A DNA stretch of 64,000 bases, from assembly GCA_951406725.2 (NCBI GenBank), contig OX597823.1, forward strand, positions 88,102,001 through 88,166,000, read 5' to 3'. This document shows, in pieces, positions 12,445 to 38,351 of this stretch; positions within the stretch are counted from its first letter, which is position 1, and each line of letters opens with the position of its first letter. A model generated the notes under the pieces. It ran no database searches. It was given only the letters and a program-made list of their open reading frames with translations, and was not told the DNA's origin. The DNA comes from Octopus vulgaris. Taxonomy: Eukaryota. Position numbers and translations under genes: made by a program.

Positions 12445-13015
12445 TATTGGCTCGTCCGGAAAGTTCATACCGATGTAATAGTAGCTTACATTTCGACTTA
12501 TTTTAGAACATGGTTGAATCCATAAAATAGGATTTGACTACATCTCCATTTAGAGCACAGCTTAAGCTATCTTTTCGTGGAAGAAGTTTTATGTTGCTAT
12601 AACCTGTGTTAATTCTGTAACCCTTTAAAATGGAAGATAAGTTCATTTTCGGCACTTGATGCTTTGGAAACCAGACAAAAATTGCTGCAGCTCGGCTGGG
12701 ATGTGTTACCCCACCCTCCATATTCACCAGATATTGCTTCTTCGGATTTCCACTTATTCTGCAGGTCTCTGCAGAATAGTCTTAATGGTAAAACTTTCAA
12801 TATCTTGGATGACGTCTAAAGATACTTTGATTAATTTTTTTACCATGAAACCACCTCAATTCTAAGAATAGGATATTTTCAAGTTAAGGGAAAAAGGGAG
12901 ACGCATTGTGTAACAGAATTGTTCATATTTAGTTGATTAAAAATGTAATGGCAAGTATTTATTGACCTTTTTCTTTCCTTTAAATATCGGCACGAACATT
13001 CCGGATAACCCAATA
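12445..13015 (+). mobile_element. Internally deleted mariner transposon with both TIRs
   Basis: Left end TATTGGctcgTCCGGAAaGTTCaTaCCGAT matches the reverse complement of the right end, TATTGGgttaTCCGGAAtGTTCgTgCCGAT. N-terminal MEDK..FRHLML is fused to TRQKLLQLGWDVLPHPPYSPDIASSDFHLF (mariner YSPDLAP motif). Confidence 0.9.
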
Positions 13016-17006: not shown

Positions 17007-17427
17007 TGATGCGTGTTGAGTGACAAACGTAGTTTTCCGTGTCGGTCAGATCATGAGCTGAAGTTAGACCTGCGGATAACGAGCAGTGGATCTCCTTCTA
17101 AAATCGCGGACAAGACTCTTACAGACAATCATGAAAGAACACTGTACATGTTGCGCCTTTCATTCTGTTTGAAACAACGCAACTTATTTTCGATCAATAA
17201 GGAACATCATAGCAATATATAAGTATGTCTGATAAACAAATATCTCTAAGCATTAAAATGATATTATTTTTCTCACATTTTAGTTCAGTACGAAGCGAAT
17301 AGTGTACACGTTTATAACAAGAAGATAAATAACTTCGAGAAATATAAATCGGAAAATTGCAGGAAGGAAGTTGTAGCGGAAAAACAAGACAGAAACAAAT
17401 GGCAGAAGATAAATTCGTGTTGCTTAC

Positions 17428-17625
17428 TTGGACATCAAATGGGAAATCATTCAACTCCAAGTTCTCCATGAAAGTTCCTTTAATCACCCGTTTCTCAACG
17501 ATGTAAGCTTCACCTTTATCATTGAAGTTCACTCTGTGCCGTATATTTTCTTTTGGATCACCTAGTGTGTTTTCAATGTAAAGTTTTGGACTCCAGTATT
17601 TCTTAATATCAATACCTTCCAGTGC
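17428..17625 (-). CDS. Internal coding exon (66 aa) of a pentameric ligand-gated ion channel subunit, extracellular domain, Cys-less (Pro-loop) type
   Basis: Minus strand: polypyrimidine tract and acceptor (ttttcttttatactttacAG) before 17625; donor CAA|GTAAGC after 17428; 198 nt, phase 0-0. Translation ALEGIDIKKYWSPKLYIENTLGDPKENIRHRVNFNDKGEAYIVEKRVIKGTFMENLELNDFPFDVQ has the loop A WxPxxxxxN motif and the LxLxxFPFDxQ Pro-loop motif. The ORF-track 17194-17772 ORF merely extends into intron on both sides. Confidence 0.88.
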
Positions 17626-18216
17626 CTGTAAAGTATAAAAAGAAAAAAGAGAAAAAAAGAAAGATATCAGATCAGTAAACAAAATGTTATAAATAAAGAA
17701 GCTGAGAAAACAAATGAAAATAAATCGGAATGGTTCGTATTTTAGTATGACTAATTCTGTATTAGTTTCCATTCTATTTGGTTATACACTGCATTACACA
17801 AACACAGAAACACACGTACGCAAACATATATTAACATACACGTAAAGGTATATATACATATATATATATACATGCCATAAAAATGTATGCTTAGATATAT
17901 GTCTTCGAATAGGTATATATGCGTATGTGTATTTGTGTGAGTATGTGTGTGTGTGTGTATGTAGGTATGTACACATATACGCAGACATATATATATGTAT
18001 ATATTTTATAAAATATATATACATACATGTATGCATATATGTATATACACATATACAAATACATATATATGTGTGTGTATGTGTAAATAGACAAACACTC
18101 TATACATATATTTGCATAGAGATATATATGTATCTAACTATCTATCTGTCTCCCCTTCTTTGTCTTTCTTTCGCTCGCTCCTCTCTCTGTACACACACAA
18201 ACACATATATGCTCCT

Positions 18217-26179: not shown

Positions 26180-26373
26180 CGATTCCCGGACAGTGCTGTG
26201 TGCTGTGTTCTTGAGCAAGACACTTTATTTCCCGTTGTTCCAGTTCAGTCAGCTGTAGAAATTATTTACGACGTCACTGGTCCCAAGTTGTATTGGACTT
26301 TGTCTTTCCCTTGGATAACATCGGTGGCATAGAGAGGGGAGAATGTTATGAATGGGCGACAACAGGTTTTCCA
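26180..26373 (+). mobile_element. 5' part of a tRNA-derived SINE interrupted by the LINE; 3' part resumes at about 27451-27535
   Basis: cgattcccggac..tgtgttcttgagcaagacactttatttc..gttccagttcagtcagctg is similar to the 14290-14360 SINE head. Confidence 0.6.
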
Positions 26374-27451
26374 TATTGTACGATGGGATGGTGCCTTCCT
26401 CTCAGATCGCTCCTTCCAAGTCCAAGTTAATGGTTCGCGGTCCGACGTCTCCAGTGCGAGCAGTGGCGTGCCTCAAGGTTCAGTGCTTGGGCCCTTATTG
26501 TTCGTGGTCTTCATAAATGACTTGCCCGACGACCTCACGCAACACACCCTTCTATTTGCCGACGATGTCAAACTGGTCGCTCCTCGCGGTGATATAGAGG
26601 ATCTTCGTCGATGCCTCCACCAAATTTGGAGATGGTCTAACGAATGGGACCTGTGTCTGAACGTGTCAAAGTGCTGTCATCTGCCTGTTGGCTCTCCTCC
26701 TGCAACTCAACTTGATTTCGAGCCGGGTCGGCTGCTGCTGGAGAGGACCGATCAGGTAAAGGACCTGGGTATCTTGGTGGATTCCTCCTTTTCGCCTTCG
26801 GCCCAGTGCGTCCATGCTGCCAACAAAGCACGCGGAGTTCTGTTCATGATTCGACGGTCATTCGGAATGCCCACAGCAGCCATATTCCTACCGCTCTATG
26901 TCACGCTGGTGAGACCCATATTGGAGTACGGGATTCAAGCCTCTTCTCCTTATATCCTCAAAGACATACAGCATCTCGAAAGAGTCCAGAAGCTGGCTAC
27001 CCGCAATGTTCTTGGTCTCAAAAAATTGTCTTATGAAGAAAGGCTTAAGACGCTCGACCTTTATTCTCTAGAAAAACGACGACGCCGTAGAGATCTCATT
27101 CTTGCTCACAACATCATAAGCGGAAAGTGTAACCTCTCGAAAGAGCTGTTCTTCGCTCCTGCTCCAGAGCGTCGGCTGCGGGGTCCTTCCGAAAAGCTCT
27201 ATCTGCGACGATTTCATCTCAATCGAAGGAGAGGGGCTTTCTCCGTCCGGGTTGCGGATCCGTGGAATAAGCTGCCGGACTAGATGGGGAAGATGCCGAC
27301 GACCGCTCGGTTCAAAGTCTCCCTTGACCTCAAGTGTCCTGAACTCTTTACATGAACACCACACTGTACATAACTCCATGTCCCCCTACATGGCCTTGCT
27401 TTTTGCTTTTTGAGCCAAAAAATTAACTAACTAACTAACTAACTAACTAAC
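26374..27451 (+). mobile_element. 5'-truncated CR1/L2-group LINE: RT C-terminal half, 3' UTR and (TAAC)n tail
   Basis: GVPQGSVLGPLLF, FADD, KDLGI, VRPILEY, LERVQ and RRRRRDLI motifs in ORF 26348..27283. The frame continues past TAG 27281-27283 (MGKMPTTARFKVSLD..) to TGA 27353-27355. The ATG at 26348 lies in the host SINE. Confidence 0.95.
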
Positions 27452-36740: not shown

Positions 36741-38351
36741 TATAATTACATATATATGTGTGTGTGTGTGTGTGGCATACATATATGTATATTATTTGTC
36801 CTCAACATGAGGACAAATATCCATCAAATGCAAATAATGCAAATAATGTACATAATTCCTCATCTCGTAAATATAGCACTATGTAAGTTAATACGTCTAC
36901 TTGCTGACAATGTTCTCAAAAAGTATGACTTTGCTTCAATACTGAGCTCTCATTTCAAATTCCGACCAGATTATCTCTTCCTTAATCTTTACTGCATTGA
37001 GAATTAAAGTACCTATCCGAAATCGAAACGACTTGCAAATCTGTCACCTAATTTATCATTACTATCTAATCCTCGGCTGTTTTTAACAGAGCTCAATCAT
37101 TTACAAGAGACAAGTGAGAAGTTTGAGCATAATTTCCACCCACCTCTCTTGTGCATAGATGTTCTTCACCGGTCTTCCCGCCCAACTAAACGTTAAAAAG
37201 AAAGAAAATGAATGGTTTTATTGACTTGAAGACTATGATATCGTTACAGTTTTGTCTCTTAAATAACAGAAGAGAAGTTTAAAAATGTTATAAAATATTG
37301 CTTATTAGGAGAATAGGGTTGAAGAAAAGTATAACTGATAATAGACAAGGAATGTACGAGTAAGGGAACTCTTGGGAGAGTCAAACAAAAGAGATGTGGA
37401 AAAAAAACGGAAAAAATACAATAATATATTTTAAAATAACTGTTGATGAAAGAAATATCAGATATTTCTTTCAGTGGTTTAGAAACATAATATAATTTCA
37501 TAGATATTCTGTATAGAAAGGAAAACAAGACACTTTATACACACACACACACACATATGCACAACAAACACATTCTCTATTTCTCACATATATATGTCTG
37601 CGTGTCCGTGTGTGTCAAATGCTTTAAAAATGTCGAAAATAGAAAAAACATTCTTCACACATCTAATGATATCATTATAACTTAGAACAGCTCTTGAGTG
37701 TTCGATACCTTGCGTTTGAGACCGATTTTAATGCCATTGAAGTAAGGGCTGTCTTTATTTTATACTTTCACTACATTTTTTGCATAAATCATGTAAGTAT
37801 TGTTACACTATCACTTCCATCTTCGAGGGATAAATCTGAGATAAAAAAGCTCTGAATATTTAAAGATAATGATTTCCTTCAGAAACAACAGAATTTAATT
37901 TCACCGAAAAACAATCCGCTTTCAAGCAAGACACGTATGCATCACTATTCACTATACAGTGCTGTTCTTCACTGCCCCTTCTGAGTTTATTCCTTGTCTT
38001 ACATACAAAACACTGCGAACGCTAAGAACTGTCATCAACTGTTTGTTAAATAACAAACTTTATATAAAACTCTTGCTCCCACCAACCTCTCCGATTATCA
38101 CAAGAATATTAACATACCATTAACGATCTGAGAATTTCTTTTATCATAACATTTTATGAATATTTCACATCTTTTATCACAAATTCTTTTTATATGTCTG
38201 TGTTTGATCGTCTTTCTCTACATATTTCTAGAAAGCGAAGTAAATATATTCAAAGAGTAAATAACCTCCATCTTCTCTCTCTCTCTCCTTCTTTCTAAAG
38301 TGCCATCTCTTTACTAAAGACTCGCTTGATTTTTCCGTTCATATTTTGGTG

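Follow-up and report, generated by a model that had tools for sequence, protein, structure and literature searches.

The exon, its splicing and its gene

The window, i.e., the whole stretch of 64,000 nucleotides analyzed here (G000:C10:88,102,001-88,166,000), lies within a gene on the minus strand that codes for a subunit of a pentameric ion channel of the ligand-gated type (pLGIC). The gene features concerned are as follows.

17428..17625, minus strand: 66-aa coding exon of phase 0/0 that corresponds to residues 71-136 of P0005, the ortholog from O. bimaculoides; it covers the loop A region, the strands as far as beta6 and the tip of the Pro-loop
17464..17466, minus strand: Glu codon at the position of the first Cys-loop cysteine (Glu in 74/84 diverse clade members)
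17434..17445, minus strand: F-P-F-D, the Pro-loop signature
17626..17667, minus strand: polypyrimidine tract and AG acceptor; contigs end at 17625/17627
17422..17427, minus strand: GTAAGC splice donor; the loose contig ends in 4/4 runs are the start of the next exon
37144..37185, minus strand: in-frame cassette exon that belongs to the same gene (42 nt, 14 aa), found in some O. sinensis isoforms and absent from the initial annotation

On the plus strand, the window also holds an intronic reverse-transcriptase fragment (26333-27280, PF00078). A broken stretch at about 12600-12860 (plus strand), whose tested frame has no Pfam match, is presumably mariner-transposase-like, judged by motif.

Exon 17428..17625 is genuine, spliced and coding. 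Read from 17625 to 17428, its 198 nt give 66 stop-free codons between an upstream polypyrimidine tract ending in tttacag and a downstream gtaagc. Annotated proteins of Octopus vulgaris, O. sinensis, O. bimaculoides and Argonauta hians contain the peptide with 100% identity, and the remaining 41 of 45 matches show 59-98% identity; Pfam gave no match for the 66-aa exon alone. Contigs in four of four sequencing runs, from four studies, cover the exon, end at the donor and resume in the next exon; these runs come with no tissue labels, and their RNA nature is an automatic guess and not on record. One low-depth contig (run X9) runs across the donor into the intron. At the acceptor, five contigs span the exon or its 5' end, and the lengths of four of them are informative, with ends at 17625 or 17627 and 130-173 extra letters in three; this joint is supported by ends and lengths and was not read directly. 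Protein identity and spliced contigs rule out intron noise as the source of the exon. The clean splice sites and the probable cephalopod origin proposed in the initial annotation are borne out by these data.

The GAG codon at 17466-17464, seven codons ahead of F-P-F-D (17445-17434), places Glu at the first loop cysteine position, as had been read before. The next exon (G000:C10, about 88,070,579-88,070,321) opens with D-L, and hence the second position is Leu, i.e., likewise not a cysteine.

Inclusion of the cassette exon adds 14 residues, one of them Cys, between strand 2 and exon 17428..17625. On the upstream side, the contig of run X1 exceeds that of run X11 by 40 letters, and its match extends 2 letters more, as cassette inclusion predicts; apparently, the cassette is included in one of four runs.

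Exons matching P0005, on which all protein-level analysis was done, extend along the minus strand of G000:C10 from 88,188,392 to about 87,883,670, i.e., over more than 300 kb. The exon or exons for residues 223-274, the pore helix, were found neither by a genome search with a 55-residue query nor in the 95 kb between the flanking exons. Two public O. vulgaris gene models and one older O. bimaculoides model also stop ahead of the pore. One might thus suppose that the gene is truncated in this genome and yields a soluble or one-helix product, but we regard this as very improbable. The 95-kb interval contains a 100-N assembly gap, the M3-M4, post-M4 and last exons downstream are intact and identical to the ortholog, and full-length models are known from O. 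sinensis, O. bimaculoides and Argonauta as well as from transcript-derived, decapodiform-like sequences. Given these full-length models in related species, we take the missing pore exon to reflect a gap in the assembly; gaps of this kind may also have produced, as artefacts, the public models that end before the pore. The 100-N gaps, at G000:C10:88,054,863 and 88,220,916, fall in those introns from which the pore exon and, possibly, 5' exons are absent. A search of about 200 kb upstream, a stretch with a 100-N gap, did not yield the first exons annotated for O. sinensis and O. bimaculoides isoforms, and of the 5' exons only the two of one O. vulgaris model mapped to this region. At the other end, alternative splicing affects the C-terminal tail, whose last exon is used in two frames (G000:C10, about 87,883,670-87,957,900; L006, L009, L010); in the same region, one exon that is coding in an O. 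bimaculoides model carries stops in G000.

A genome search with four queries of different subclades found no second Cys-less locus; since this search scores only the best candidates, the single locus is a lower bound. The copy number of the Cys-less subunit in octopus seems to be one, with about 70% identity across molluscs.

Family membership and fold

A quick maximum-likelihood tree was calculated from 58 rows, made up of 27 Cys-less, 10 anionic, 9 nicotinic, 5 chemotactile-like and 7 bacterial sequences; the nicotinic rows are mostly partial exons, and one motif-less anionic candidate was left out. In this tree, the Cys-less rows fall into a single clade (SH-aLRT 100) that is separate from the anionic (100) and cationic (99) ones and not nested inside a canonical Cys-loop clade. 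Clade partners of the octopus gene are lophotrochozoan, flatworm, echinoderm and amphioxus Cys-less channels, and the octopus sequence groups with a Schistosoma member. The clade also takes in 12 environmental rows (SH-aLRT 95, long branches), whose Atlas neighbors include diatom and chlorophyte clusters. Cys-less and chemotactile-like rows as one group were rejected (p-AU 1.6e-5), where the labels "chemotactile-like" and "nicotinic" for loci of this genome were assigned here from the intronless cluster and from motifs; this rules out identity with a chemotactile receptor. A sister position to the anionic clade was not rejected (p-AU 0.22). The separate clade, together with clade-wide cysteine loss (Cys at the first loop position in 1/84 and at the second in 0/84 members), also rules out a lone substitution in a canonical receptor.

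Tree and residue pattern place the gene in the eukaryotic primary Cys-less (Pro-loop) clade described by Jaiteh, Taly and Henin in 2016 (PMC4795631), which in the available part of that paper lists bivalves and gastropods among its members. Schistosome members were treated by Johnson et al. 2023 (PMC9874803), who give the function of the clade as unknown, report its absence from vertebrates and propose it as a schistosome drug target; planarian homologs, as cited there, occur in mechanosensory neurons, with seizure-like effects on knock-down. The sensory or neural role that the initial annotation suggested as possible would rest on these planarian homologs. Octopus and published members have in common the no-Cys loop with a polar first and a hydrophobic second position, F-P-x-D and four transmembrane helices, and no family-level difference was seen. 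Cephalopod preprints use the clade only as root or outgroup in the portions available (10.1101/2025.04.02.646353, 10.1101/2025.06.15.659772); the former screened 41 octopus channels with 18 bath ligands. A molluscan survey, accessible in part, names a 231-sequence "Cys-less" clade (PMC13174522); as this one is defined by a YXCC motif and called anion-type, it may differ from the clade discussed here. The initial annotation had proposed a Cys-less pLGIC of an orphan lineage separate from nicotinic and chemotactile receptors. Class and separateness hold, with Glu and Leu at the loop positions and the tree test above; the lineage, however, had already been described (PMC9874803 and the available part of PMC4795631), and annotations of the gene exist in several octopus genomes. 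Gene and clade are thus known, and the predicted topology is what we add.

Octopus chemotactile and nicotinic receptors share superfamily and genome with the Cys-less gene. They keep C-x13-C and signal peptides, whereas the Cys-less gene has neither, and chemotactile-like genes are intronless in contrast to its span of more than 300 kb. As a control set we used the Cys-loop genes clustered at G000:C15:56.9-57.4 Mb, which number more than 20, have signal peptides, mostly lack introns and probably represent the chemotactile receptor array. Bacterial scans gave few homologs (5 loci; 1/17 and 8/401 genomes). A viral scan returned only two loci, both canonical Cys-loop: L089:1-2364 and L090:157-2911, from IMG/VR giant-virus bins with possible bin contamination, carry tandem pairs of nicotinic-like genes with signal peptides and vicinal loop C cysteines.

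In the predicted model, the ortholog has the pLGIC (Pro-loop) fold. At a pLDDT of 83, P0005 shows a beta-sandwich (residues 28-209) and four helices, as the initial annotation had expected, and no confident helix before strand 1. Structural comparison placed GABA-A and glycine receptors at the top (Foldseek E 1.3e-20; Z 23.1, rmsd 3.1 over 310 residues), whereas ELIC was the best sequence match among solved structures (E 1.3e-18). The Pfam score was 30.1 bits for PF02931 (cut-off 26) and, just below the cut-off of 28.1, 27.2 for PF02932. P0005 keeps the superfamily residues F131-P132-x-D134 ([FY]PxD), W174 in beta9, R209 before M1 and P266 between M2 and M3, and has no second cysteine loop.

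Conservation was counted over 84 core-covering sequences out of 150 representatives at 50% identity, with one triple-tandem protein excluded. Residues of gate and coupling are nearly invariant: L9' is found in 83/84 and R0', P132, R209, P266 and D275 in 84/84, and the coupling residue D134 is also conserved. In contrast, the M1 proline, given for 77% of the superfamily in the available part of PMC4795631, occurs in 5/84. The loop B aromatic, a position mapped by alignment to ELIC, is replaced (E 28, D 14, K 8 of 84), and loop C is variable across the clade, with no conserved aromatic in octopus. An acidic residue at M2 -1' or -2' was reported as frequent in the clade (PMC9874803). Among the representatives, -1' is N in 33 and D in 16, and -2' is Q in 34 and E in 10; with Q-N-R, octopus lacks it, and the acidic residue is a tendency of the clade and not a defining trait. 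The octopus M2 carries neither PAR nor GEK, the M1-M2 loop is of anionic-type length, and M2 15' is K or R in 83/84. Acidic residues stand at positions 41, 43, 47, 170 and 173 in 74, 74, 52, 64 and 70 of 84. Aligned through a sTeLIC/DeCLIC-like protein, these positions fall on the DeCLIC and ELIC divalent sites, built from the beta1-beta2 loop and loop F according to the accessible part of PMC9897478; acidic residues in both elements are common in canonical receptors too.

Likenesses to other pLGICs are split. ELIC (Dickeya), GLIC, sTeLIC and DeCLIC also lack an N-terminal helix and have a short M3-M4 loop, and the ELIC M2 is very similar to that of octopus (Q2', T6', L9', A13'). However, ELIC has Glu at -1', aromatic loop B and C residues and the M1 proline, all missing in the octopus protein, and bacterial homologs (7/7 dereplicated) differ in that they carry a signal peptide, their M3-M4 loop is basic and their tail has 2 residues. 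Similar to octopus in M1-M2 loop length as well as in fold, GABA-A, glycine and GluCl receptors depart from it by their disulfide and signal peptide, by glycosylation of the domain, by an M3-M4 loop that is long and basic and by the PAR motif, and their own clade (SH-aLRT 100) contains no Cys-less rows. Some members depart from the usual architecture. In the flatworm proteins P0088, P0098-P0104, P0107 and P0116, the M3-M4 loop is 100-134 residues long and carries 2-5 N-glycosylation sequons. P0356 (Logan) strings three tandem Cys-less subunits into one chain of 1160 residues, a natural concatemer with three similar records in its cluster.

Cues to membrane orientation

Signal peptides are nearly missing from the clade. 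Of 124 homologs, 113 cover the core and 96 of these start with Met; a simple hydropathy rule, with hand-set helix borders, scored an N-terminal stretch as signal-peptide-like in 3/96, in contrast to 45/76 anionic and 12/16 chemotactile-like controls. For 50%-identity representatives with a usable N-terminus the counts were 3/70 versus 19/23 anionic, 12/15 chemotactile-like and 7/7 bacterial sequences; relatedness among members makes such counts overstate independence. None of 24 cephalopod isoforms or models with a measurable N-terminus was signal-peptide-like (maximum 2.07, in an alanine run). Metagenomes contributed 80 loci with 34 near-complete ORFs, 32 of them with an in-frame upstream stop, which in some possibly genomic contigs might be intronic; any hydrophobic stretch ahead of strand 1 was present in 3/32. 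Clade N-termini are instead long and hydrophilic, with a median of 75 residues. Their sequons are at chance (67 vs 71), and PKA-type motifs (18 vs 11.5 shuffled; 21 of 500) are too weak to use.

Glycosylation sequons show the reverse distribution to that of the controls. In the N-terminal domain, 33 clade members have 14 sequons versus 28.7 after shuffling, whereas 39 anionic controls have 118 versus 67.9; the excess in the chemotactile-like control is not significant (264 of 2000). At least one domain sequon is found in 42/84 diverse representatives (0.71 observed, 0.93 expected), and these sites do not sit at conserved places (at most 8/84). In the long M3-M4 loops of eight clade members, mostly flatworm, we counted 19 sequons versus 10.0 shuffled (4 of 2000 shuffles), as opposed to 25 versus 19.1 (170 of 2000) in 43 anionic controls, whose loops were also above shuffles before dereplication (8 of 2000). 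The flatworm loop sequons are a positive cue that suggests inversion of the subunit in the membrane, which may extend to animals with nervous systems.

The density of K and R is greater on the sensor-domain side in 74/84 clade members versus 0/24 anionic and 1/7 bacterial sequences. The sensor side is also more basic in 12/15 of the chemotactile-like control, which has signal peptides, and about even with a wider window; because this control failed, the charge test alone does not discriminate. Beyond M4, the clade has a basic helix (3.5 K+R in 10 residues vs 0.5, 0.2 and 0.0 in controls) and a C-terminal tail with a median of 47 residues vs 8, 4 and 2. No fused cytosolic domain was found in 58 long members, and no informative extracellular one either; CUB and DDE fusions among them look like chimeric gene models.

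Orientation, gating and significance

From these cues, all of them sequence statistics, we consider it probable that the subunit is inverted in the membrane, with the beta-sandwich sensor domain and both termini in the cytosol. Without a signal peptide, the 180-residue domain would fold in the cytosol, and M1 would act as signal anchor. Basic residues before M1, at the end of M2-M3 and after M4 would stay cytosolic, and the short M3-M4 loop would face the lumen or the outside. The loss of the cysteines would thereby be explained, because the reducing cytosol allows neither disulfide nor glycan on the sensor domain. Likewise, a sensor domain facing the cell interior would account for the lack of a known activating molecule. 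As no paralog was found, the channel might, as a weaker inference, be a homopentamer gated from the cell interior.

The initial annotation took an ordinary extracellular ligand site for granted, whereas a sensor domain in the cytosol, which ligand and pH screens from the bath would miss, is what the sequence cues suggest. An orphan channel in canonical orientation would have its domain outside without a classical, or recognized, signal peptide, and would respond to an unknown external ligand or, like GLIC and ELIC, to protons or cations. In eukaryotes, N-terminal domains of 200-300 residues are rarely translocated without a signal sequence, which counts against this orientation, as do the long hydrophilic N-termini with upstream stops and no hydrophobic core, the mirror-imaged sequon pattern and the basic helix after M4. 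It would, on the other hand, agree with a fold and domain-interface residues that are fully canonical, with the external domain of every solved relative and with the failure of the charge test on the chemotactile-like control. Published analyses also take the domain as extracellular (PMC9874803 and the available part of PMC4795631). Taken together, we find canonical orientation unlikely. A literature search whose reach excluded most subscription papers found none that treats an inverted orientation of the clade or its lack of signal peptides. In the accessible parts of their text, PMC4795631 has no match for "signal peptide", and neither it nor PMC9874803 mentions orientation or the absence of signal peptides.

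It is somewhat doubtful, too, that the subunit, inverted or not, works without gating by a soluble ligand, be it as a leak channel, as one sensitive to lipid, voltage or force, or as a nonconducting scaffold, possibly organellar. The scarcity of the M1 proline and the missing conserved aromatic box would fit here, the basic M2 15' residue could touch lipid, and planarian homologs are reported in mechanosensory neurons, as cited in PMC9874803. However, the nearly invariant L9' and R0' and the retained coupling residues P132, D134, R209 and P266 are what domain-to-pore coupling leads one to expect. Such a mode of action does not conflict with inversion; the stimulus alone sets it apart.

For an inverted channel, Ca2+ or protons acting at the acidic interface of beta1-beta2 and loop F are the foremost gating candidates, which by analogy with DeCLIC and ELIC we put forward tentatively. 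An amine transmitter is unlikely as ligand because the aromatic box is missing. Cues to ion selectivity are mixed, with an ELIC-like M2, Q-N-R at the selectivity position, a loop of anionic-type length and the near-invariant K/R at 15'; based on the ELIC-like pore helix, we lean slightly toward cations. On balance, we favor, with less assurance than the orientation itself, an ancient third pLGIC branch that was kept in animals, octopus among them, and inserted upside-down, and that may serve as a cytosolic sensor for a signal like Ca2+ or protons, i.e., as a second-messenger-gated neuronal channel with the fold of the neurotransmitter receptors.

Cys-less animal channels have been orphans since 2016, and the papers found give no ligand, selectivity or structure. 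If the inverted orientation is true, the lost disulfide is explained, ligand screens by bath application cannot work, and the search would have to turn to signals from within the cell and to inside-out patches. Such an inversion would also be the first orientation reversal in the superfamily found in print. With a single copy that is about 70% identical across molluscs, octopus offers a clean test case. For this known orphan clade, the predicted topology is thus well-supported by sequence and would change the route to deorphanizing its members.
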